DNA of 53,426 nucleotides from a virus (Duplodnaviria > Heunggongvirae > Uroviricota > Caudoviricetes), in the IMG/VR virus record IMGVR_UViG_2541047798_000005, one strand, 5' to 3'. The translations under genes were made by a program, and so were the position numbers. Position 1 is the first letter of the stretch; each line of letters opens with the position of its first letter. Shown here one piece after another: positions 7,372-53,149 of this stretch. The notes below the pieces were generated by a model. The model did not search any database, had not been told where the DNA came from, and worked only from the letters and a program-made list of their open reading frames with translations.

Positions 7372-8424
7372 TCAAAGAACGCCAGCGCGCGTATCACGTA
7401 GCGTTTTTGGTTTAAGCAGGAAATCAAGTGTCGCGGTGAAGCCATCGCCGAAGTAAAAATCTGAAGCCGTGTTTTTGAACGTTTCGAAGTAGGCGACAAA
7501 GCCGTTAATGCTTTTGTCTTTCAGGTAGTCAGTGAACGCATAGATCTTGCGTTCAAGATCCCGATCCAGTTCGGCAGGTGGTAACAGGCCGTCAAACGTG
7601 CTGTTAAATGCTTCCACCACGTCGGCAGCGTTTACAGTGGCTGACAGTTTGCGCCATTGTTCAGCATCAGTCAGATACCCATCAAATTTAGTTACCCGGC
7701 AAATGTTGATAGGCTTAGGTACTCCACCACGGCTACGCCATTGGGTTAAAGCCCACTCAATTACTAACGTGATCTCATTCTCCGTATACGCTTTACGTGT
7801 TTTTGTTTCTGTCAGTAGTTCTACGAATGGCTTAGCATCACGACATTTGCATCCTGCCTTGTCGTTGTAGAAGGCAAGGCAACGCAATGCCGCTTCGTTT
7901 ACGCCATCCTGATTGACCATTTTTTGTTCATTTTCGACAATACACGAAGTGTATATATCTTTTTCTCTTTCTTTTTCTACTTCTAATTCTAATTCATGAC
8001 CCTTTCCTGACCCGGTCATGACCCTATCATGACCTTTTTGTGTTGGATTGATTAACTTTTCTAATTTTAATTGCTCCTTCGCTGTGTTTATGGCGGCCCT
8101 GTAAGCGCTTTTAGAAGTCATTGATTGGTCCAGCCTTTTCAATAACTTTAAACAAGTTATGTGGCCTTGAGAACATTCAAACAAACCAATTTCGATGAAG
8201 TATTTCATCATTTCTTCTATACGTTTTTCAGTAGATCCGACGTTTCGCGCAATTATTCTTGCGTCATGTCGTAGGTCAAAAGTTAGATTGTGCTGATCTA
8301 CGTCATAAGTTATTAGTTCTAGGCAATACCAATAAAGCCCGTACCCTTCCAGGCCATAATCTAACAAAACGTTTTGAAGTTTTTCATCGCGGTTCGCATC
8401 GCTGTCATGCTTAAACCACTTCAT
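7372..8424 (-). CDS. Replication initiation protein with phage replisome-organizer-type N-terminal domain
   Basis: 350 aa; N-terminus MKWFKHDSDANRDEKLQNVLLDYGLEGYGLYWYCLELI typical of replisome-organizer / DUF4373-type N-domains; sits where lambda O would be. Confidence 0.65.
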   Translation of the reverse strand: MKWFKHDSDANRDEKLQNVLLDYGLEGYGLYWYCLELITYDVDQHNLTFDLRHDARIIARNVGSTEKRIEEMMKYFIEIGLFECSQGHITCLKLLKRLDQSMTSKSAYRAAINTAKEQLKLEKLINPTQKGHDRVMTGSGKGHELELEVEKEREKDIYTSCIVENEQKMVNQDGVNEAALRCLAFYNDKAGCKCRDAKPFVELLTETKTRKAYTENEITLVIEWALTQWRSRGGVPKPINICRVTKFDGYLTDAEQWRKLSATVNAADVVEAFNSTFDGLLPPAELDRDLERKIYAFTDYLKDKSINGFVAYFETFKNTASDFYFGDGFTATLDFLLKPKTLRDTRAGVL

Positions 8425-8427
8425 AGA

Positions 8428-8685
8428 TCATCCCTCCGGCAACATCACTACATAGACATCACTGAATGCATCAAGACGACAAACAAATCCTTTATCCATT
8501 AACGCGGCGAAGGCATCATGTACCGTATGAACAGGAAGTTCACACATTGCGGCTACTTCTTTGCGTGATGCATCATGTACCCGTCCTTTGTTATCTGCCT
8601 TTTCAGCCAGAGCCATTAAGACAAGTTTTTGAATCGGGCTATTAAGTTTTACGTTCCATGCTTTACTAATCATGTTCATACTCAT
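8428..8685 (-). CDS. Cro/CII-like small HTH regulator, first gene of the minus-strand early operon
   Basis: 85 aa from ATG at 8685 with AGGAG RBS; predicted HTH; divergent from cI-like gene. Confidence 0.55.
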   Translation of the reverse strand: MSMNMISKAWNVKLNSPIQKLVLMALAEKADNKGRVHDASRKEVAAMCELPVHTVHDAFAALMDKGFVCRLDAFSDVYVVMLPEG

Positions 8686-8794
8686 CGCATTTTCTCCTAT
8701 GGTTAGAGTGAACGCGCGGGCGGGCATCCCATTAGCATTAGATAGCAGTGACTGACCGCTCAACAGATCCCGCCGTTGCGTGATATTTGTTTTT

Positions 8795-8827
8795 CGCTTC
8801 GCAGCGACACCGGATTTTTAAAGAGCA
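8795..8827 (-). promoter_or_regulatory. nut-like site (boxA-like TGCTCTTTAAAAA plus hairpin CGCUGCGAAGCG) in leader of the minus-strand operon
   Basis: Minus-strand reading gives a close match to rrn/lambda boxA followed 8 nt later by a short GNRA-type hairpin. Confidence 0.4.
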
Positions 8828-8990
8828 TAAGGTAAGTGCCTTTTTGTGCCTTCAGTTATCTTTTTCCTTGCGTCTTTGCAAGTATGGCCTTACCTTGTCT
8901 GCAAGTTTACAAAATGGAATTTTAAGATCAAGGCTTAAAATACACGTTTTGTGACTTGCATCAAACTTTTTGAGGTTATAGGGTAGCGAC

Positions 8991-9638
8991 ATGAAAACAA
9001 AATGGTATGACTTAGCAAAGCAGCTCATGCGGGCGCAGGGCATGAGCCAGGATTCACTCGCGGATCGTATGGGGATAACTAAAGGCGGCCTGTCACACTG
9101 GCTGAACGGTCGCCGAGAGCCAAATCTTGAAGATATTGCGCGGATTATGCGCGAGCTTGGTCGTCGGCAGTTTACTGTTACACATGATGGCATGGTCATT
9201 GATGATTCTGTTTCTAATACACTTCAGGCCGTGCCGCCGCGTGATTTAGGTAGTTACCCGGTTATTGACTGGAAGGACACAGTAAACAATATGGATGACG
9301 CAAGGCGTTCAGCATTACGACACGTTACGACTAGCGTTATTTGTTCAGATGACAGTTACTGGCTGGTTGCCAAAGGTGAATCAATGAACGCGCCGCAGGG
9401 GTTGAGCATCCCGGCGGGGACGATGATACTTGTGGACCCGCACGCGCCAGCTATTGACGGCAAACTGGTTATAGCCCAGCTTGAGGAAGGGCAGATACCG
9501 ACGTTTAAACAGTTGATTATTGATGGAGGTCAAAGGCTTTTACGTTCGCTCAATCCGCTGTATCCGCCAATCCCTATGAATCCAGAATCAAAAATTATAG
9601 GCGTGGTGGTTGATGCGAAGATCGTAAACCTGCCATAA
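8991..9638 (+). CDS. cI: cI-like repressor (N-terminal HTH, C-terminal S24 LexA-like peptidase domain)
   Basis: 215 aa; HTH (GMSQDSLADRMGITKGGLSHWLNGRR); S24 motifs GESM and K-containing C-terminus; no RBS before ATG, consistent with a leaderless pRM-type transcript. Confidence 0.85.
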   Translation: MKTKWYDLAKQLMRAQGMSQDSLADRMGITKGGLSHWLNGRREPNLEDIARIMRELGRRQFTVTHDGMVIDDSVSNTLQAVPPRDLGSYPVIDWKDTVNNMDDARRSALRHVTTSVICSDDSYWLVAKGESMNAPQGLSIPAGTMILVDPHAPAIDGKLVIAQLEEGQIPTFKQLIIDGGQRLLRSLNPLYPPIPMNPESKIIGVVVDAKIVNLP

Positions 9639-42363: not shown

Positions 42364-42717
42364 ATGCCGGAAGTGTTCAGATGGACGCCGCAAAGAAGCT
42401 ACAGCGTGACCAGGAAGCCAGACGTATCTGTTGTTAAGCTGGGCGATGGTTATGAGCAAAGACAGGTAAAAGGTATCAATCCATTGCTTGATAGCTACAC
42501 CCTGGTGTTTAAAGGCAGTAGCGCCGGATGTGGTGATGGTGGAAACGTAGCAATCCAGGCGGAAGCATTCTTGAGGGCGCGCGGCGCGGTCGAGGCTTTT
42601 TACTGGTCGCCGTCAATGGATAACGTGCAAAGGCTTTTTGTCTGTCGGCAATGGAGCATGACTAAAGACGGGCCTTTGTACACGCTAAACGCAACGTTTG
42701 AGCAAGTTGTTGGCTAA
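42364..42717 (+). CDS. M: Minor tail protein M
   Basis: 117 aa; similarity to lambda gpM as recalled (...FRW.....LGDGY.QR...G.N.....Y...F......FEQVV). Confidence 0.8.
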   Translation: MPEVFRWTPQRSYSVTRKPDVSVVKLGDGYEQRQVKGINPLLDSYTLVFKGSSAGCGDGGNVAIQAEAFLRARGAVEAFYWSPSMDNVQRLFVCRQWSMTKDGPLYTLNATFEQVVG

Positions 42718-43974: not shown

Positions 43975-44679
43975 ATGCGCAATATTCCGAGAGAAATGAT
44001 TATTGATTCCGTCGATGCCGGAGTCGGCGCGGTAATTGACTTGTTTGAATTAGACCTCACGCCCCTGGGTGGCGAGGTTATCCGCTTCCATTCCGGCGTG
44101 AATGGCTATTACGGCCCGGTTATCTGGAAGGGGGTGGCTTACAACAGCTACCCTATCGAGGCCACTGGCTTCGAAATGAAAAACGAGGGTGTCTATTCAC
44201 GCCCGCAAATGGTTGTAGCCAACATTGGCGGCCTAATCACCGGGATGAATAACGATTTCAACGACCTGCGAGGAATGAAAGTTACACGCCGCCAGGTGGA
44301 AGTAAAATACCTGGACGCCATCAACTTCCCCAACGGCAACCCGGATGCAGATCCGTCTATCGAGGCGGTGTCTTTTTACGTCGTTGAGGCGATGAGCGAA
44401 GAAACAGCCGACCAGGTGCAATATGAGCTGTCAACGCCAATTGATGCTGACAAGGCGGTTATCCCAGGGCGCACAATCCTTGCTGACGTTTGCCAATGGC
44501 AATATCGCGGCGACGGTTGCGGATACAGTGGCGGCCCTGTAGCTACTGATAAAGACGAATCGACCAGCGATCCAAAGCTGGATAAATGCAGCCACCGCCT
44601 GAGCGGTTGCCGTTTACGTTTCCCGCGCCCGAATCCGTTACCAATTTCATGTTTCCCAGGATCGAGCAAGGTGGGTTGA
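43975..44679 (+). CDS. L: Minor tail protein L
   Basis: 234 aa; similarity to lambda gpL as recalled (...DLTPLGGEV..F......Y..YPI...GFE.......RP...V.N......GM......L.G..V.RR.V....LDA.NF.NGN..ADP...). Confidence 0.85.
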   Translation: MRNIPREMIIDSVDAGVGAVIDLFELDLTPLGGEVIRFHSGVNGYYGPVIWKGVAYNSYPIEATGFEMKNEGVYSRPQMVVANIGGLITGMNNDFNDLRGMKVTRRQVEVKYLDAINFPNGNPDADPSIEAVSFYVVEAMSEETADQVQYELSTPIDADKAVIPGRTILADVCQWQYRGDGCGYSGGPVATDKDESTSDPKLDKCSHRLSGCRLRFPRPNPLPISCFPGSSKVG

Positions 44680-44681
44680 TT

Positions 44682-45413
44682 ATGGCACTTGAAGATAAAA
44701 TGATTCGCTATGCAGCAGCCCACCCGCGCGAGGAAGTGTGCGGGCTGGTGATAGATAACGATTATTTTTACCCGTGCGCTAACGTGTCTGAAACGCCGCA
44801 CAACAGCTTTAAAATCTCGCCTGACGATTATATCAAAGCTGACGAATTGGGCGTTATAACAGCCGTTTTCCACTCTCACGTTGAAGATATTCCGGTATTG
44901 TCGGCACGGGATCGACAACAGCAGGTTATTTCCGGCCTGCCGTGGTTTTTATGTTCCGGTGGCATGGTGAGGAAATTCCGCCCGGTGGCGCACCTGTTAG
45001 GCCGTAAATTTGAACACGGGAAAACAGATTGCTACTCGCTTTTTCGTGACGCCTATCACCTTTGCGGCGTGGATCTGCCTGACTTTGAACGCCACGATGG
45101 GTGGTGGCTGCGTGGGGAAAACCTGTACATAAAAAACCTGCCATTGAACGGGTTTTTCATGGTTGATGCGCAAAGCATTCAGCCTGGTGACGTGATTATT
45201 CGCCAGCCGTTCAAGGGTGCTGACCCATGTCACGCGATGATTTACCTGGGCGATAACACTGTTTTGCATCATGACAATGCCGGACTGCTAAGCCGCCGCG
45301 AGCAAATGCGGCCCGCGTATGTTCGACAAACGCATTCAATATGGAGATCTGACAAATGCTCAAATTTAGATTTACGGGCAATCTTCGAAGATATTACGGC
45401 AAAGTGTGTTTAA
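44682..45413 (+). CDS. K: Tail assembly protein K
   Basis: 243 aa from ATG at 44682; lambda K-like region (DGWWLRGENLYIKN..., HAMIYLGDN); MPN/NlpC-like. Confidence 0.75.
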   Translation: MALEDKMIRYAAAHPREEVCGLVIDNDYFYPCANVSETPHNSFKISPDDYIKADELGVITAVFHSHVEDIPVLSARDRQQQVISGLPWFLCSGGMVRKFRPVAHLLGRKFEHGKTDCYSLFRDAYHLCGVDLPDFERHDGWWLRGENLYIKNLPLNGFFMVDAQSIQPGDVIIRQPFKGADPCHAMIYLGDNTVLHHDNAGLLSRREQMRPAYVRQTHSIWRSDKCSNLDLRAIFEDITAKCV

Positions 45414-45886
45414 ACGTTGATACGCCAGCACAAGGACTTAGCCTATTGACCGCGCAGAATCAGGAGTTCAAGAAGGCTTTTTTAAATACACCTTTGCGGT
45501 TACGGATTGCCGGGAAAGATTATAACGAAAAGACGGCCCCGGCAGCGGTTAATAGTAAATACCCTGACGGAACTACCGTCATTATTGCGCCAGTAGTTGA
45601 AGGCGGTATTGCTGGGATTGGTGTTGTAGGCTGGATCCTGATTGGTGTTTCGGTGGTTAGCGTTGCGTTCTCAATCTTTATGTCCCGCAACATGAAGATA
45701 AAAACATCGGCAGAAAGCGCACAAGATAACACCATAACGAACAACACCTACACCAGCATTGAAAACAAGGTGGGCCAGGGTAGACCAGTGCCAATACTAT
45801 TAGGTGAAATGAAAATAGGTTCAAACGTCGGATCGTTAGGCATAGACACAAGCAACAATAGAGACGCCTTAGACGTTGTAAGTTAA
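45356..45886 (+). CDS. I: Tail assembly protein I
   Basis: 176 aa; position and hydrophobic central segment as in lambda gpI. Confidence 0.65.
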   Translation: MLKFRFTGNLRRYYGKVCLNVDTPAQGLSLLTAQNQEFKKAFLNTPLRLRIAGKDYNEKTAPAAVNSKYPDGTTVIIAPVVEGGIAGIGVVGWILIGVSVVSVAFSIFMSRNMKIKTSAESAQDNTITNNTYTSIENKVGQGRPVPILLGEMKIGSNVGSLGIDTSNNRDALDVVS

Positions 45887-45899
45887 CAGGAGAAAAACC

Positions 45900-48800
45900 A
45901 TGAGTAGCGGCGGCGGCAAAGCCAAAACACCAACATTATTGAACGATAACCTGTATCACAAACAGTTTTATCGTGTTTTAGATATTCTCAGCGAAGGGCC
46001 GATATACGGTCCGGTAAACCAGAAGGCGCCATTGAATGACGTGATGCTTAATGACACTCCTGTTACTGACGCAAACGGGAATACATCAATTCCGGGGATT
46101 AGTATAGCCTGGCGCAACGGCACGGCTGACCAATCGCCGATTAATGGTTTTAACGCCATTGAGTCAACCGTTATTGTCAACGCAAAGGTAACTCACGACA
46201 CACCAATAATCAGGACTGTTTCAGATCCAAACGTTACCCGCGTCAGGTTGAATCTTGGTGTTGATGCTCTCGTTCAGTCAGATGAAAAGGGCAATCAATA
46301 TAATACATCCGTCATGTTGATGGTTGATGTTAAACCGTCATCATCTTCTACGTGGTCGCTGATTAAAGACATACACATTGGCCCTGGTAAACAAAGCGGT
46401 GAATACCTGGAAGCTCACATCATTAAAGCGCCGGATGAAAAACCGTTTGATATTCGCGTTCGTCGCATAACACCAGACAGCAACGGCGATCTATTGCGGA
46501 ATGATACGCGGTGGAGTAGTTACAGCGAAATAATAGATGATAATCTGTCTTATCCTCATACCGCTGTAGCTGGCGCCGTAATTGACCATGATCAGTATAC
46601 TGATACGCCTACCCGCACCTATCACCTTCGCGGCCTGATTGTTGATGTGCCTGACAACTACAACCCTGAAACGCGCACATATTCAGGTTTATGGCTTGGT
46701 GGATTTAAAAAGGCGTATACCAATAACCCTGCATGGCTTTTCCGGTATCTGGTTAAAAACGAGCGCTTTGGACTTGCTCGACATGCTGGTTACATTGATG
46801 TTGATGATGGCGCTTTGTACGTGCTTTCTCAATACTGCGATCAGTTGGTTGATGATGGCTATGGTGGCCTTGAACCTCGCATGACGCTTAACGCTTACAT
46901 TACGGAGCAAATGAGCGCCCGCGACCTACTGGATAACATCGCAGGTATGTTCCGTGGTATCGCGTTATGGGACGGACAACGTCTTACCGTGATGATTGAT
47001 GCGCCACAAGATCCAATCGCCACCATCACAAATGCAAACGTCGTTGATGGCGCGTTTACTCGTTCAAGTATCGCACGCGCAGAATGCTACAACGCCGTGA
47101 TCGTATCCTGGACTGACCCTGAAAACGGCTGGGAGCAATCAAAAGAATATGTCGCAGATGATAAACTAATCGCCCGTGATGGTTATAACGAAACCACGTT
47201 GGAGGCGTTCGGTTGCACTTCACGCGGGCAAGCGCACCGCGCTGGTAAATGGCTGATCGAAACAGCGAAACGCGAGCCGTCAAAATTCACATTTAAAATG
47301 GCCCGTGACGCCATTCACTTTACGCCGGGGGATATAATCGAGATCCTCGATAATAATCGCGCAGGCGCTCGTTTAGGCGGTCGCATCGTGGCGAACAATG
47401 GCAGAGCGATCACGGTCGACAAGGTTGATTCTGAATATATCGCGGCTGGCGACACCATCAGCTTACTTGATAGCGATGGTAAATTTAAAAAACACCAGAT
47501 CATCGGAGTTAACGGGAACATTATCACCCTTGCAGCCGCCCCGGCGTGGATTCGTAACGGCACTGTTTTTGCTGTATCAACCAACGCAGCAAAACCCGTT
47601 TTATGTCGAATCACCAGTGTAGCAGAAACAGAAAATAACAGCGTATACACCATCGAGGCCGCACAGCATGATCCACATAAGCAGGCCGTAGTCGATAATG
47701 GCGCAATCTTCGAGATCAATAACGACACGCTTAATCACTTCCGCGTGCCGAACATTGAAAATCTGAAGGTGTTAAACGTTGGATCTGAAACGGTTCAATG
47801 TCGCGCAACATGGGAAACACAGACGACAACGCGTCGCCTGACCTTTGAGATTCGCGTGTATAACGCCGAAGGCGCTGTAGTTAAAAGCTACGAAACCACG
47901 AATTACAGTTATGATTTTTATGGCATTGATGCTGGCAACTACTCATTAGGCATTCGTGGCAGAAATGACACGGGCATGAAGGGTGCGGAAAGCATTGTCG
48001 ATCTGGTTATTGGCGCACCAGCGGCCCCAGTTGGCGTTAATTGGGTTCCCGGTGTATTCCAGGCTACAGTTTACCCGATCAGCAGAACAACGCTCACCAC
48101 TGATACCAGTTACGAGTTTTATTACTCAGGTGAAACGCAGATCACTGATCCGGCATCAATAACCACTAAAGCACAATATACCGGGCGTGGTCATCAGTGG
48201 ACGTTTGGCGGCATGAATACAGGTCACACATATTACGTTTATGTGCGCGCGCGTAACGCTTTTGGTGTGTCTGACTTTGTGGAAGCGTCAGGTAAGCCAA
48301 CAGAAAACTTTGATGAAATTACCGATTACGTCACCAAAGACGTAATGAATTCCAAACAATTTAAAGAAATGGTTGGTGACATTAAAGATCTAGGCGACCG
48401 CACTGATCTTATCGAAAGCGCTACGAATGACCTTAAAACTGCTACTGACAACCTCAAAACTGCAACTGATAATCTGACCAACATAACTGACGATTTAAGG
48501 ACTGAAACTGACAACCTAACCATAGAAACAGGATCAATAAAAGCTGATACTGATACGCTCAAAAAAGAAACGGAAGATCTTTATAAAAAAGTTAAGGAAA
48601 ACGCCGATGATATTGGACAGCATGAGTCGAGAATCGACTCGCTGGAGGTGTCTAGCGAAAAAGTTGGCAGCGAACTGGCGCAAGCAAAAGCAAGTCTGCA
48701 AAACGCCTCACTTGCTCTTATTAATAACTCGCTTGCACAGACTAACACTCGCGTAACTCTTACCGCTCAGTACAAGAAAGGCAGGACAGAGACGAAAGCG

Positions 48801-50870
48801 GAAATTGACCGCATTGACAACGTTATCGCTGAAGAGAAAAAAGCGACAGCGGAATCACTGGAAACCATCACGGCAGAAATGAATGTGATGGACACAAACC
48901 TTAAAGGTCAGATCTCTAATGTGCAACGCGCAGTAGCTGACGAGGCCAGCGCCCGCGCTGAAGCTATTAACGGTGTAAATGCCTCAATAAGCAATCTTGA
49001 CAAGAAAACTGACGCCAGCGTAAACCGTCTTGATCAGGCAATTGCAGACGAAACAAGTGCGCGTACTCAGGCTATCAGCGACGTGAACGCAAGTATCTCA
49101 ACACTTGACAAGAAAACTGACGCCAGCGTTAAGCGCCTCGATAATGCAATATCAGATGAAACGCAGGCAAGAAGCGACGCAATAACAGTGGTTAAAGCTG
49201 ATTTAACAACGCTTGAAAATAACACAAATGCCAGTGTTAGCCGTCTTGATCAAGCTATCGCTGATGAATCAAGCGCACGTGCTCAGGCGATATCAGGTAT
49301 CAGCGCGACGCTTGGCGGCGTTAAAAGTGAGGTTGATAAAAACAGCGACGAGATAGATCAGGCGAAAGCAAGTCTGCAAAACGCATCTCTGGCGCTTATT
49401 AATAACTCAATGGCGCAAAGCAAGATGAGCACTGTTATTGAGGCGAAATACAGGAAAGGACAAACAAAAACAAAAGCGGAAATAGCAAGGGTAGACACAG
49501 CAATCGCAGATGAGGCGAGCGCACGCGCAGAAGCTATTAGCAACGTTAACGCCAGCGTCAGTAGTCTTGAAAGCAAAACCGACGCGAGCGTTTCCCGTCT
49601 TGATAAAGCAATCGCAGATGAGGCGAGCGCACGCGCAGAAGCTATTAGCGGGGTTAATGCGTCAATTTCCACGCTCGATAGCAAGGTGACAAGCAACGTA
49701 ACCAGGATGGATAAAGCGATCGCAGATGAGAAGAATGCACGCACTGACGCAATCAGCAGCCTTAACTCATCGCTTACCAGTACGATTAATTCGAAAGTAT
49801 CCGAAGTGTCAACTGCACTTTCTACGCATGAAACATCAAGCGCGGAAAAATTTGGCCAGATCTCGGCATCTTTCGACGATGTAAACTCAAGCATCACGGA
49901 ATGGTCACAGGCTATGGCAACGGCAGACGAGGCATTGTCAACCAGAATCGACCAGTTGAAAGTAACTATTAACGGAAACACAACGGCGATAGAAACGACA
50001 TCAAAAGCACTGACTGACTTCAAAGGTAACGTTGATGCGTCATATTCAATTAAGATTGCCACTGATAAAAACGGTATGAAATACGCTACAGGAATGTCGC
50101 TCGGCCTTACTGGTAGCGGGACTAACGTTCAATCGCAGTGTATTTTCCTCGTTGACCGTTTCGTGCTTATGACTGCGGCAGGTGGCTCCTATCAGACCCC
50201 GTTCTATGTTACTAACGGTGCTTGCTACATCCGTGATGCGTGGATCAGAGACGCATCAATCACTACCGCGAAGATTGCGCAGCAAATTCAGTCAACCAAC
50301 TATAAAGCTGGTTCGGCTGGCTGGATGCTAAATAAAAACGGCAATGCGGAGTTCAACAACGTCACTGTACGCGGTACGGTGTACGCAACATCTGGTAAAT
50401 TCACTGGTGAGATTCAGGCCACAAGCGGGAAGTTTAAAGGTACAGTAGAGGCAAAGTCATTTGTCGGTGACGTTGCTAACATGGGGGTTGGTCCAGATCG
50501 AGTGCTTGGGCATAACGGAAGTTATAGCGCAACCATCACATATAAAGACAGCACGGATAATGCATTGACGAAATCAGTTATGCTTATGGCGACTATTTCA
50601 TTAATGTCTGGTGAATATAGATCCACTTATAACGTAACGTTTAGTTGCGGAGATAAAAACAAAACAATTTCATATTACGTGCCTTATGGTGGATGCACAT
50701 TAACAGTGCAATGCGCTTTTTCTGGTTTAAAAGCATCAGATATTATCGGGAAAATATATTGTCCTCAAACATCATCATCTGAAGGATACGCATATTGTAC
50801 CGCGTTGTATTCTCCAACAATGATAGTAGCAAGAGGCACCGGATCATTTAGAACATCAACGACAGCATAA
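45900..50870 (+). CDS. J: Host-specificity central tail fibre protein J with expanded coiled-coil repeat region and divergent C-terminus
   Basis: 1656 aa; N-terminal two-thirds collinear with lambda J as recalled; residues about 930-1300 are coiled-coil tandem repeats. Confidence 0.85.
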   Translation: MSSGGGKAKTPTLLNDNLYHKQFYRVLDILSEGPIYGPVNQKAPLNDVMLNDTPVTDANGNTSIPGISIAWRNGTADQSPINGFNAIESTVIVNAKVTHDTPIIRTVSDPNVTRVRLNLGVDALVQSDEKGNQYNTSVMLMVDVKPSSSSTWSLIKDIHIGPGKQSGEYLEAHIIKAPDEKPFDIRVRRITPDSNGDLLRNDTRWSSYSEIIDDNLSYPHTAVAGAVIDHDQYTDTPTRTYHLRGLIVDVPDNYNPETRTYSGLWLGGFKKAYTNNPAWLFRYLVKNERFGLARHAGYIDVDDGALYVLSQYCDQLVDDGYGGLEPRMTLNAYITEQMSARDLLDNIAGMFRGIALWDGQRLTVMIDAPQDPIATITNANVVDGAFTRSSIARAECYNAVIVSWTDPENGWEQSKEYVADDKLIARDGYNETTLEAFGCTSRGQAHRAGKWLIETAKREPSKFTFKMARDAIHFTPGDIIEILDNNRAGARLGGRIVANNGRAITVDKVDSEYIAAGDTISLLDSDGKFKKHQIIGVNGNIITLAAAPAWIRNGTVFAVSTNAAKPVLCRITSVAETENNSVYTIEAAQHDPHKQAVVDNGAIFEINNDTLNHFRVPNIENLKVLNVGSETVQCRATWETQTTTRRLTFEIRVYNAEGAVVKSYETTNYSYDFYGIDAGNYSLGIRGRNDTGMKGAESIVDLVIGAPAAPVGVNWVPGVFQATVYPISRTTLTTDTSYEFYYSGETQITDPASITTKAQYTGRGHQWTFGGMNTGHTYYVYVRARNAFGVSDFVEASGKPTENFDEITDYVTKDVMNSKQFKEMVGDIKDLGDRTDLIESATNDLKTATDNLKTATDNLTNITDDLRTETDNLTIETGSIKADTDTLKKETEDLYKKVKENADDIGQHESRIDSLEVSSEKVGSELAQAKASLQNASLALINNSLAQTNTRVTLTAQYKKGRTETKAEIDRIDNVIAEEKKATAESLETITAEMNVMDTNLKGQISNVQRAVADEASARAEAINGVNASISNLDKKTDASVNRLDQAIADETSARTQAISDVNASISTLDKKTDASVKRLDNAISDETQARSDAITVVKADLTTLENNTNASVSRLDQAIADESSARAQAISGISATLGGVKSEVDKNSDEIDQAKASLQNASLALINNSMAQSKMSTVIEAKYRKGQTKTKAEIARVDTAIADEASARAEAISNVNASVSSLESKTDASVSRLDKAIADEASARAEAISGVNASISTLDSKVTSNVTRMDKAIADEKNARTDAISSLNSSLTSTINSKVSEVSTALSTHETSSAEKFGQISASFDDVNSSITEWSQAMATADEALSTRIDQLKVTINGNTTAIETTSKALTDFKGNVDASYSIKIATDKNGMKYATGMSLGLTGSGTNVQSQCIFLVDRFVLMTAAGGSYQTPFYVTNGACYIRDAWIRDASITTAKIAQQIQSTNYKAGSAGWMLNKNGNAEFNNVTVRGTVYATSGKFTGEIQATSGKFKGTVEAKSFVGDVANMGVGPDRVLGHNGSYSATITYKDSTDNALTKSVMLMATISLMSGEYRSTYNVTFSCGDKNKTISYYVPYGGCTLTVQCAFSGLKASDIIGKIYCPQTSSSEGYAYCTALYSPTMIVARGTGSFRTSTTA
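48680..49740 (+). repeat. Nested tandem repeats within J (about 40-aa AIADE.SAR..AIS.VNAS coiled-coil units plus a larger duplication beginning DQAKASLQNASLALINNS)
   Basis: Repetition visible at both protein and DNA level; generates a spurious 234-aa antisense ORF. Confidence 0.7.
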
Positions 50871-50898
50871 AAAACGGGGCATAAGCCCCGTTTTTTTT
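50870..50898. terminator. Bidirectional rho-independent terminator between J and the convergent minus-strand gene
   Basis: ACGGGGC-ataa-GCCCCGT hairpin flanked by A-run and T-run. Confidence 0.8.
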
Positions 50899-50909
50899 AT
50901 GCATTGTTT

Positions 50910-51155
50910 TTATTTTTTACACCCATCATTTACACCAGAAAAATGGATAGGTAAATTACATTCACTGTCAATAATTTTACCTTGTAGTTGTTTTTCTTTC
51001 CATGAGTCAGTATTGAAATAACTCGAACGTTGGTTATCAAGGCCAGTATCACCATATTGAGCAGTGCCAGCATCACTCTTATCTGTCGAATTTACAGAAG
51101 CAAAAGCACCAAAAGACAGAGCTGATAAGATGCAAGCAACAATTAGTTTTTTCAT
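50910..51155 (-). CDS. Small secreted protein (moron)
   Basis: 81 aa from ATG at 51155; Sec signal peptide MKKLIVACILSALSFGAFA; two Cys near C-terminus. Confidence 0.5.
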   Translation of the reverse strand: MKKLIVACILSALSFGAFASVNSTDKSDAGTAQYGDTGLDNQRSSYFNTDSWKEKQLQGKIIDSECNLPIHFSGVNDGCKK

Positions 51156-51352: not shown

Positions 51353-53149
51353 ATGATTTACACAACAGGCACTATAGCTGTTAGCGGAAACACAGTTACC
51401 GGGGCAGGGACTGAATTCAACGCCGCATTATCTCTGATCAGAGTGGGTTGCACTCTTATTGCCATTAGCGATCCGGTGCAGATTTTTTCAATCACAAAGG
51501 TAAAAAGCGCAACAAGTTTGTCGGTAACTCCTGCGGCAAGTCCGGCTATTCCGGCTGGAACTAAATTTAGCATCCTGCTTTCAGATTCGATCTCTGTGGA
51601 TGGTCTTGCTCAGGATGTTGCCGAAACACTGCGTTACTACCAGGGCAAAGAATCAGAAATAGCTGACGCTGTGGAGTTTTTCAGCGACAACAAAGATGTG
51701 ATTTCAGCATCAAAATTAGCATTAGCATCAGCTACCACTGCAACCAATGCGGCAACAACAGCGACAAGCGCCGCCGATTCAGCCAAGACATACAGAGACG
51801 AAGCCCACGAATACGCCAATCAGACCGCACAGCCTTACGCGTATGTTTTGCAACCGCTGCCGGACGTATGGATACCGTTTAACGATTCTCTCGATATGAT
51901 CACGGGCTACGGCCCTGGTACTAAAAAAGTAACCATTAATGGGGAAGAAAAAACAATATCATCAGATAAAGTTGTTTCTTTCTCACGCGCAAGCACTGCT
52001 ACTTACATTAACAAATCAGGTGTTTTAACTGTGGCTGGTATTAATGAGCCACGTTTTGAACGCGAAGGATTACTGATTGAGGGGACGCGCACAAACCTGT
52101 TAATAAACAGTACAGACCCTTCGAAGTGGAATAAGTCAACTTCACTGGACGTTACAGAAACAGGCACAGATAGTTTTGGGTTTAATTATGGCCGGTTTGT
52201 CGTACAGGATTCGATTGTTGGTACAAGTAAAGCGCATACCATTATCGGACTGTATTCGAGTGCCGGAGGGGTTGATACTTCAGGGGACGAAAAGCATGTA
52301 ACTATATCCTGTCGGGTAAAAAGTGAAGTTGATAATATCGCCGTTCGTATTTTATTTGAACATTATGATGGGGAGGTAAGGACATCAATAGGAGCAGCAA
52401 ACCTGAACCTTACCACCCGCATAATTAGCAAGACAGGTCAGACAAGCCGTGTTACAGCAAGGTCTGTTAAGGATGATGCAACTGGCTGGATATTTTTTGA
52501 GGCTACATTAAAAGCAGATACAACAGAAAATACGGTTGGTGGTTTCGTCCAGTATTCTCCGGATACAGGTCAGATGGTGGCATCAGGGGATTGTCTCGAT
52601 GTAACCACTCCACAGATTGAGGCTGGTGCAGGCGCATCATCTTTTATTGTTACGGGGTCGGCACCAGCAACGCGGGCAAGCGATATGGTGACAGTCCCAA
52701 TCAAGAATAACCTTTATAATCTTCCTTTTACGGTTCTTTGTGAGGTACATAAGAACTGGTATAAAACGCCAAATGCAGCGCCGCGTGTTTTTGATACCGG
52801 CGGTCATCAAACCGGAGCGATGATCGTAATGGGGTTTGGTTCATCAGGTGGGTACGACGGTTTTCCGTATTGTGATATAGGTGGTTCAAACCGACGAATA
52901 AATGAAAATGCCGGGCTGGAAAAAATGCTTATTGGTATGCGGGTAAAGTCCGAACGGTCCACATGTGTAGTCAGTAACGGTAAGTTAAGCAGCGAAACAA
53001 AAACAACCTGGACTTATATTCAAAGCTCCGCAACTATTCGTATCGGTGGTCAGACAACGACAGGACAACGTCATTTATTTGGTCATGTTAGAAATTTTCG
53101 AGTATGGCATAAGGCATTAACTGATGCGCAATTAAGCGAAATTGTTTAA
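51353..53149 (+). CDS. stf: Side tail fibre protein with C-terminal concanavalin/LamG-like domain (putative)
   Basis: 598 aa; N-terminal region with Ala/Thr/Ser-rich segment resembling lambda Stf; C-terminal pattern suggestive of a lectin-like fold. Confidence 0.65.
   Translation: MIYTTGTIAVSGNTVTGAGTEFNAALSLIRVGCTLIAISDPVQIFSITKVKSATSLSVTPAASPAIPAGTKFSILLSDSISVDGLAQDVAETLRYYQGKESEIADAVEFFSDNKDVISASKLALASATTATNAATTATSAADSAKTYRDEAHEYANQTAQPYAYVLQPLPDVWIPFNDSLDMITGYGPGTKKVTINGEEKTISSDKVVSFSRASTATYINKSGVLTVAGINEPRFEREGLLIEGTRTNLLINSTDPSKWNKSTSLDVTETGTDSFGFNYGRFVVQDSIVGTSKAHTIIGLYSSAGGVDTSGDEKHVTISCRVKSEVDNIAVRILFEHYDGEVRTSIGAANLNLTTRIISKTGQTSRVTARSVKDDATGWIFFEATLKADTTENTVGGFVQYSPDTGQMVASGDCLDVTTPQIEAGAGASSFIVTGSAPATRASDMVTVPIKNNLYNLPFTVLCEVHKNWYKTPNAAPRVFDTGGHQTGAMIVMGFGSSGGYDGFPYCDIGGSNRRINENAGLEKMLIGMRVKSERSTCVVSNGKLSSETKTTWTYIQSSATIRIGGQTTTGQRHLFGHVRNFRVWHKALTDAQLSEIV

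Follow-up and report, generated by a model that had tools for sequence, protein, structure and literature searches.

A 53,426-nucleotide (nt) stretch of viral DNA (IMG/VR record IMGVR_UViG_2541047798_000005; hereafter the window) carries a tail fibre gene, J. We propose that it encodes the trimeric central tail fibre of a mEpimmI temperate siphophage of Escherichia coli, with a long alpha-helical shaft that is built from repeated units and changes in length by whole units. We put the probability of this reading at roughly 0.8. The gene was assigned to phrog_31, 'central tail fiber J' (E = 0, PHROGs), and a segment of the E. coli CB7286 chromosome is 100% identical to it and annotated, with the same ends, as a 'phage tail tip fiber protein'. 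The gene and the parts of its protein, numbered in amino acids (aa), are as follows.

45900-50870, + strand: J gene (tip attachment protein or central tail fibre), a single open reading frame (ORF) of 1656 aa by translation
45900-48374, + strand: hub and FNIII/Ig domains, aa 1-825 (BLASTP to lambda, Pfam, PDB)
48375-49985, + strand: expanded alpha-helical shaft, aa 826-1362, 537 aa (no proline, periodicity, structure model, gap relative to lambda)
49986-50474, + strand: beta-prism or 'central straight fibre', aa 1363-1525, homologous to lambda J 841-997
50475-50867, + strand: predicted C-terminal receptor-binding domain, a beta-sandwich, aa 1526-1656

An enlarged shaft where lambda has a short one

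Compared with the lambda J reference (1132 aa, from J02459), the window J is 524 aa longer (1656 − 1132), close to the figure of about 500 aa given in the original prediction, which had been made from the letters of the window. BLASTP aligned the two proteins in two segments. The first, aa 1-850 against lambda 1-857 at 38% identity, is collinear with lambda, as had been claimed for the N-terminal part; the second joins aa 1360-1525 to lambda 841-997 at 23% identity (E 1.6e-9). Between both segments lie ~510 aa that have no lambda counterpart, and lambda residues 841-857 align at both borders of this extra region. In the structure of lambda J, the alpha-helical shaft is a three-helix bundle between FNIII-2 and the beta-prism and includes residues 841-861 (PMC11101478). 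Since the position of the lambda shaft coincides with the gap between the aligned segments, the extra length is best read as expansion of a domain that lambda already has. On this alignment, the extra region is an enlarged alpha-helical shaft and no foreign insertion, and the earlier idea of a J-type central fibre whose additional length comes from an expanded helical repeat region was thus borne out.

The domain matches are those of a lambda-type J. FNIII-A_GpJ (PF24801, aa 88-214, E 1.6e-34) and Phage-tail_3 (PF13550, aa 335-492, E 1.2e-29) both scored above the gathering score, Pfam also placed Ig_J (PF24421) at aa 609-707 and Ig_J_second (PF24489) at aa 709-811, and the PDB chain 8iyk_J matched over aa 1-851 (E 8e-187). 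The NCBIfam model of lambda J itself (NF049904, lambda_TipJ) gave 724.7 bits against a cut-off of 1950, with its match confined to aa 1-943. Judged by these scores, the window J is a J-family protein and not a lambda J orthologue in the strict sense. Lambda gpJ (PDB 8IYK, 8XCK, 8XCJ; Ge and Wang 2024, PMC11101478) has the same order of hub, FNIII-1/2, alpha-helical shaft, beta-prism and C-terminal receptor domain. However, its shaft is a short helix bundle of a few tens of residues, whereas that of the window J runs to ~540 aa; a hidden Markov model (HMM) of the repeat unit described below found no unit in lambda J and eight in the window J; and lambda is a lambdoid phage while the window phage is non-lambdoid.

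A shaft of 36-residue units

The shaft comprises a heptad-type top, two arrays of 36-aa units, two copies of a 46-aa module and a distal non-repeated part.

aa 826-918: heptad-type segment
48420-48469, + strand: tandem repeat of 21 nt near the shaft top, coding for TDNLKTA heptads (Tandem Repeats Finder, TRF)
48654-48791, + strand: 46-aa module, copy 1 (…QAKASLQNASLALINNS…YKKGRTE), aa 919-964 (direct repeat, protein layout)
48792-49331, + strand: 36-aa units 1-5, aa 965-1144 (unit HMM, 108-nt DNA spacing)
49332-49469, + strand: 46-aa module, copy 2, aa 1145-1190 (direct repeat, protein layout)
49470-49793, + strand: 36-aa units 6-8, aa 1191-1298 (unit HMM, DNA repeats)
49542-49649, + strand: 108-nt unit of variable copy number, one exact copy in the window
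49794-49985, + strand: distal non-repeated helical segment, aa 1299-1362 (helix in the structure model, similarity to T1 gp33)

Comparison of the protein with itself gave peaks at offsets of 226, 36, 190, 154 and 72 aa, and repeat copies in the DNA lie 108 nt apart; the unit is therefore 36 aa long. TRF, run on the DNA, reported the 21-nt heptad repeat only. The 108-nt units are too diverged for it to score, so we took the period from the protein self-comparison and the DNA repeat search. At a larger scale, aa 927-1298 (372 aa) form two 226-aa super-repeats. The two copies of the 46-aa module share 83% nt identity and lie 678 nt apart. The original prediction had placed about 370 residues of 40-aa repeats from position 48680 onwards. 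Its starting point holds (48681, in the first copy of the duplicated module), but the unit is 36 aa, in sets of five and three; the figure of ~370 residues likewise fits the repeats at aa 927-1298 but falls short of the helical region, which is larger (aa 826-1362).

The unit has the consensus TDASVSRLDQAIADETSARAEAISGVNASISTLDSK. Across 84 distinct units from 19 relatives, positions 5, 8, 12, 23, 26, 30 and 33 were aliphatic in 100%, and R7, D9, I12 and E15 were invariant, while most unit pairs had 60-76% nt identity. Below the units, the distal shaft is similar to the shaft of phage T1 gp33 (9l9p_S 878-977, E 4.8e-7; motif IADETQAR).

Helical structure of the shaft

Prolines, of which there are 35 in aa 1-825, are absent from aa 826-1362. 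The hydrophobic periodicity was 3.54 in the heptad part (aa 826-964) and 3.60 in both unit arrays. An AlphaFold2 (AF2) monomer model of aa 801-1400 was about 94% helix, with helices at 819-912, 926-1169 and 1181-1381, and NCBIfam gave weak SMC-type coiled-coil matches over the shaft. We infer that the shaft is a trimeric parallel coiled coil, because the F2-pyocin shaft has been solved as three-stranded (PMC13455828) and the lambda shaft is a three-helix bundle. The core positions of the unit, together with semi-core positions 1, 16 and 19, follow an 11-7-7-11 spacing, equal to ten helical turns per 36 residues, and by general coiled-coil geometry the unit arrays would form a nearly unsupercoiled bundle. 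If fully extended, a 537-residue shaft is predicted to measure roughly 80 nm.

Several observations weigh against the proposed fibre. The AF2 shaft model is of a single chain and reached a predicted local distance difference test score (pLDDT) of 71 and a predicted template modelling score (pTM) of 0.24; the shallowness of its alignment and its moderate confidence follow from the scarcity of shaft homologues, the database search having returned 18 matches, mostly fragments. The model has low-confidence breaks at aa 913-925 and 1170-1180, so that the 46-aa modules might be sites of a kink or fold-back in the shaft, although the positions of the helix breaks were inconsistent between the two module copies. 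Published micrographs of relatives describe ~130-nm tails and leave a long tip fibre unmentioned. Among relatives, the length of J was uncorrelated with that of the side fibre (rho 0.08, n = 17).

The closest structural comparison is the F2-pyocin protein PyoF10 (PDB 25VF; Adv Sci 2026, PMC13455828), whose long shaft is a solved three-stranded coiled coil. It matches the window J in sequence over aa 4-690 (E 1.4e-130) and in the prism (E 2e-19). Unlike the window J, PyoF10 belongs to a Pseudomonas tailocin and lacks a C-terminal receptor domain; no 36-aa units have been reported in it, and its fibre region spans residues 819-1204 in total, so that its shaft has a few hundred residues at most. 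Phage T1 gp33 (PDB 9L9P; Viruses 2025, PMC11945409) is also J-like, with a C-terminus (821-1172) longer than that of lambda and predicted to form an alpha/beta fibre of ~37 nm. It is much shorter than the window J, its C-terminus is experimentally unresolved, and in small siphoviruses of the T1 kind receptor specificity mostly resides in another protein, whose gene lies downstream of J.

A profile of the eight units was also searched against 1.84 billion representative proteins and matched 66 clusters at E <= 0.001, 24 of them at E <= 1e-10. Lengths of 1100-1900 aa are frequent among these clusters, and the best match often falls 800-1700 residues after the N-terminus, where the shaft of a J-like protein would be expected. 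A domain scan covered six of the matches: a 1922-aa J-like protein (16 matching stretches), a 1834-aa protein with a YadA-type anchor and four proteins without a Pfam match. On these searches, the unit motif is uncommon, yet wider than the mEpimmI group. The stalks of YadA-type trimeric autotransporters, which are long repeat-built trimeric coiled coils, are comparable by analogy only. The 1834-aa protein (P0094, YadA_anchor) matched the 36-aa unit profile in 12 stretches; it is a bacterial adhesin that lacks a J domain, and its weak match does not go beyond the repeat motif. It hints that the 3.6-periodic kind of repeat is also used in bacterial adhesin stalks.

A mEpimmI prophage

The window is collinear with phages mEp010, mEp013, mEp021, mEp044, mEp515, mEp554 and MagusPhagus at ~85-88% nt identity. 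Five of the six mEp phages cover 74-91% of the window at 85-88% nt identity; mEp021 covers 50% of positions 1-25000 and 88% of positions 25001-45900. Megablast matches of J were to these mEp phages and MagusPhagus only. By this nucleotide similarity, the window is an E. coli prophage of the non-lambdoid mEpimmI (mEp021-like) group. The J proteins of the seven phages have the same architecture and the same 36-aa unit, at 73-89% aa identity over the alignable parts; the sequenced mEpimmI phages carry 5-13 units and one 46-aa module, against eight units and two modules in the window. The annotation can be corrected correspondingly: the gene encodes the central fibre of a mEpimmI prophage rather than a lambda J to which a foreign tail was added.

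Earlier work on this group (Front Microbiol 2025, PMC11893012) reported that mEpimmI J proteins differ in size, with 'repeats of different length' at 950-1475, then a conserved stretch and a variable terminus. The same study detected J in virions of mEpimmI relatives, found that dependence on LamB or OmpA tracks the type of J C-terminus and reported that lipoproteins whose genes adjoin J exclude phages with the same receptor. Variable-length repeats in mEpimmI J are therefore already known, as are long shafts in J homologues of F2 pyocin (solved) and T1 (predicted). That study gave no structural interpretation of the repeats and no perfect-copy allelic series. What is new here is the assignment of the repeats to an alpha-helical shaft with a 36-residue, 3.6-periodic unit, the perfect-copy allelic series and the independence of shaft length from terminal-domain type (both below), and the pointing out of the terminal-domain allele and a linked 81-aa secreted protein as uncharacterised.

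Whole units differ between relatives

The repeat layout of the window J matches the group pattern of variable-length repeats, conserved stretch and variable terminus. By the unit HMM, the 19 J proteins of the group contain 3-13 units and are 1358-1828 aa long. Copy number thus varies among related prophages and is not invariant, in keeping with the expanded repeat region that was first proposed. It varies even between near-identical genes: the unit at 49542-49649 is present once in the window, twice in GN04592 (J of 1692 aa) and three times in LP-26-E1-261 (J of 1728 aa). The added copies are perfect, and outside them GN04592 and LP-26-E1-261 differ from the window by at most three single nucleotide polymorphisms in the 5 kb gene. 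Neighbouring units share a 59-nt core at 90% identity, which is a plausible substrate for unequal crossover or slippage. A more divergent allele, FAH, lacks 21, 36 and 72 aa relative to the window, the 21 aa being three heptads of the TDNLKTA segment. The reported differences in J length within the group come down to the expansion of one structural element, the shaft, in 36-residue quanta, and the series of one, two and three copies shows that fibre length changes as fast as strains diverge.

Perfect 108-nt tandem repeats can be collapsed or expanded by assemblers, and several database proteins of this region are fragments, so copy-number differences might in principle be artefacts of assembly in repetitive DNA. 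We consider this extremely improbable. The alleles with one, two and three copies are in RefSeq records listed as complete genomes, the one-copy form occurs in at least four separate strains, and the span of 108-324 nt fits within single reads of any current platform. In addition, divergent alleles show the same 36-aa and 21-aa quanta together with many substitutions.

Under the proposed reading, each 36-residue unit would add ~5.4 nm of nearly straight three-helix bundle. Gain or loss of a unit would be expected to leave the rotational phase of the distal domains unchanged, because the 11-7-7-11 spacing amounts to 10 turns per 36 residues (3.6 per turn). Whole 108-nt units are gained and lost, most likely by unequal homologous recombination or replication slippage between adjacent units. 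In line with the longer reach that was first suggested, shaft length would set the distance of the receptor-binding domain from the tail tip, which might, for example, let it pass surface polysaccharide and contact an outer-membrane protein. As in lambda, the receptor signal would then have to return along the shaft before the hub opens.

The polymorphism might instead be selectively neutral and stem from the instability of tandem DNA repeats; every length beyond some minimum would then serve, and the reach of the fibre would be untuned. Unit numbers cover a wide and continuous range (3-13) within one phage group on the same host species, LamB-class phages isolated on E. coli K-12 carry 5, 10 or 13 units, J length does not follow side-fibre length, and perfect copies are gained or lost on very short time scales, all of which would be expected of neutral variation. 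Yet every observed indel is in frame and comprises whole structural quanta (36, 72 or 21 aa). The units are also old and diverged in DNA (60-76% for most pairs) but keep their core positions and R7, D9, I12 and E15, and such strict conservation in diverged DNA points to purifying selection on unit structure. Furthermore, the group minimum is three units, and none of the 19 members has a shaft as short as that of lambda. Neutrality of length is a possibility to be taken seriously, although we think the odds lie against it.

A bolder form of the proposed reading treats the 36-residue unit as a phase-neutral length quantum, with the repeats acting as a rapidly mutating 'ruler' locus that tunes probing depth through O-antigen or capsule independently of the receptor domain, and with the hub triggered over roughly 80-110 nm. 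This is speculative and, in our view, unlikely. If true, signalling across an 80-110 nm bundle would need a kind of triggering unlike the short-range twist-and-flip of lambda. The alleles with one, two and three copies form a natural set for asking whether central-fibre length affects adsorption through surface polysaccharide and how a signal crosses a long shaft, and for phage engineering the shaft may be a site at which length can be changed without touching the hub or the receptor domain.

Shaft length and receptor domain vary independently

At least five types of terminal domain occur in the group, each with several unit numbers. The window type is found with 5, 8 and 10 units and the NGTWDKWEESHD type with 3, 4 and 12; shaft length and receptor-domain type therefore vary independently. 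Modular exchange is also evident, with breakpoints at the borders of the shaft. GN05505 has no mismatch to the window over 2.4 kb (~48400-50757: shaft, prism and terminal domain), while upstream the two are 5-20% divergent. Since the identity starts there, the recombination breakpoint lies at ~48360-48400, the junction of FNIII-2 and shaft. FAH is identical to the window over aa 1400-1656, with 138 differing positions upstream.

These mosaics bear on the idea that the repeats serve mainly as recombination substrates for swapping C-terminal receptor-binding cassettes, which is the host-range switching suggested in the original prediction. GN05505, with a shaft, prism and receptor domain identical to those of the window on a divergent hub, is what such swapping would leave, as is FAH. 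The free combination of at least five receptor-domain types with unit numbers, and the way in which each type travels with a matching small gene downstream, fit the idea as well. However, the clearest breakpoint, at the FNIII-2/shaft junction, is outside the 36-aa units, and the conserved prism (70-86% aa identity) beside the receptor domain offers an equal or better crossover site. Lambda-like and T1-like phages exchange J termini without such repeats (BASEL paper), so the repeats are not required for switching. As the main role of the repeats, cassette swapping thus seems unlikely.

A lambda-like prism and a divergent receptor domain

Phage_Tail_Tip (PF09327) matched aa 1363-1500 (E 2.9e-40), and PDB sequence matches of the prism (23gd, 25vf, 9l9p, 9wca, 8xcj and 8iyk) give it relatives in lambda J, A8 gpJ, T1 gp33, the F2-pyocin protein PyoF10 and a gp24 J-like protein. 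Precomputed annotations also list PF28217, for the stretch ahead of PF09327. In hhalign, a profile of 52 homologues aligned with lambda J 840-1042 at 98.8% probability up to aa 1569, a position among the first strands of the terminal domain. For the last 297 aa, an AF2 model (pLDDT 80) had significant Foldseek matches only to lambda gpJ713 (8xcj, 8xck) and A8 gpJ713 (9wca, 9wcb), with lambda gpJ713 as the best. Beyond this, the last ~90-130 aa had no detectable sequence match to lambda (BLASTP and phmmer stop at lambda 997-1000, hhalign at 1042), and a forced alignment of the last 96 aa with lambda gave 4% identity. The C-terminus, which had been called different from that of lambda, is therefore only partly so: the prism (aa 1363-1525) is homologous to lambda J on alignment and in predicted structure, whereas the description stands for the terminal receptor-binding domain.

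Across the group, the prism keeps 70-86% aa identity and the terminus 1-21%. The terminal domain of the window is 16-21% identical to those of the LamB-dependent group alleles and MagusPhagus, and unalignable with those of the OmpA-dependent alleles. Higher identities were found outside the group, with phage PD328 (43%), HK97 J (36%) and Queuovirinae J (about 35%). With HK97 J and the J-like tip proteins of Queuovirinae, 9g and Dhillonvirus, the terminal 150 aa share 31-43% identity across 96% of their length, and the match to these termini places the window receptor domain in a widespread family of J termini. The J proteins of HK97, Queuovirinae, 9g and Dhillonvirus lack a long unit array, and their identity to the window is too low for a receptor to be transferred. 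A receptor inference from HK97 J and Queuovirinae J was considered and dropped, at 31-43% identity and with many such phages using a separate receptor-binding protein.

Genes downstream of J

Three features follow J within the window.

50869-50898, no strand assigned: bidirectional intrinsic terminator (A-run, CGGGGC-ATAA-GCCCCG, T8), read from the sequence, separating J from the small gene that converges on it
50910-51155, − strand: 81-aa signal-peptide protein (MKKLIVACILSALSFGAFA, then SVN…), convergent to J
51353-53149, + strand: side-fibre protein, 598 aa, with a GTA-type (gene transfer agent) 'head spike fiber' domain (NF048003) at aa 241-442

The consensus terminator scan did not list a terminator at 50869-50898. 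The gene for the 81-aa protein is preceded by an AAGGTGA ribosome-binding site, and the listed 100-aa ORF (to 51212) is probably too long. It occupies the slot of the Lpp superinfection-exclusion lipoprotein in the mEp phages, which carry Lpp010 or Lpp021 there; its product is unrelated in sequence to Lpp010, Lpp021 and Cor and gave no family match. The protein resembles a substrate of signal peptidase I more than it does a typical lipoprotein. The window thus departs from the group trait of a LamB- or OmpA-type terminus with the cognate Lpp lipoprotein downstream, in having another receptor-domain allele and an unrelated downstream gene. An identical 81-aa gene (WP_000734009.1) lies beside every window-type receptor domain examined (loci L009, L010, which is GN05505, L011 and L020), and its product may be the cognate exclusion factor of that domain. 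The receptor allele and the 81-aa protein may then indicate a receptor/exclusion pair beyond LamB/Lpp010 and OmpA/Lpp021.

The side-fibre protein, which also has a weak Laminin_G_3 match at its end, raises a further reading of the long shaft, as a docking platform for side fibres with the 46-aa modules as docking sites. There is a solved precedent in a homologous protein, the F2 pyocin, whose long alpha-helical shaft has a kink to which three trimers of the side fibre attach (PMC13455828). In the window J, the modules interrupt the unit arrays, the only low-confidence breaks of the AF2 model lie in or beside them, and the side-fibre gene is downstream of J. Against this, module number is 0, 1 or 2 among relatives with the same or similar side-fibre genes, STEC308 and N921 lack modules by a motif test, and the N-terminus of the side fibre matches the common tail-fibre families phrog_1591 and phrog_24092. 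We regard docking as quite improbable. In other relatives the side-fibre slot holds quite different genes, of 449-1160 aa, some with pyocin knob or S74 peptidase domains.

Antisense frames within J

Two long ORFs run antisense to J. The larger, of 234 aa (49358-50062, − strand), had been called a spurious product of the repeats, and we agree. Its abundant residues are L, A, S, V and I, as the complementary strand of the D/E/A/S/T codons of the shaft would give; when the codon order of the shaft was shuffled, the longest antisense frame was 180 +/- 59 aa, and 16% of shuffles reached at least 234 aa. In relatives the frame is broken at varying places or absent. It gave no Pfam match, and we rejected it as a real gene, as a frame expected from composition and not conserved. 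A second antisense frame of 137 aa (47315-47728, − strand) lies inside the conserved hub part of J; of 18 relatives, 11 keep it open across the same stretch of J (aa 472-611), which probably just mirrors the sequence conservation of J.

Tail genes upstream of J and a cor gene in a relative

The order of the tail module upstream of J agrees with M-L-K-I-J.

43975-44679: L-type tail tip protein (phrog_18)
44586-45413, + strand: K-type tail tip protein, C40 peptidase (phrog_30), 275 aa as listed
45356-45886: I-type tail tip protein (phrog_32)

A 117-aa ORF at 42364-42717 holds the position of the mEp013 'minor tail protein' gene, an assignment made by position alone. The listed K-type ORF shares about 90 nt with L; in relatives, RefSeq gives the gene a later start (732 nt), and the true K-type start is probably the internal one. 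In mEp515 and mEp021, a 567-nt HNH endonuclease gene lies between I and J (1937-2503 in both extracted loci), and it is absent from the window and the other relatives examined.

An E. coli UMNK88 prophage carries a mEpimmI-type J allele with a different terminus. After this allele come two small genes and a gene annotated as cor, for an exclusion lipoprotein (locus 8095-9274). Cor excludes FhuA-dependent phages, and this neighbour suggests a FhuA-type receptor cassette in the same phage group.

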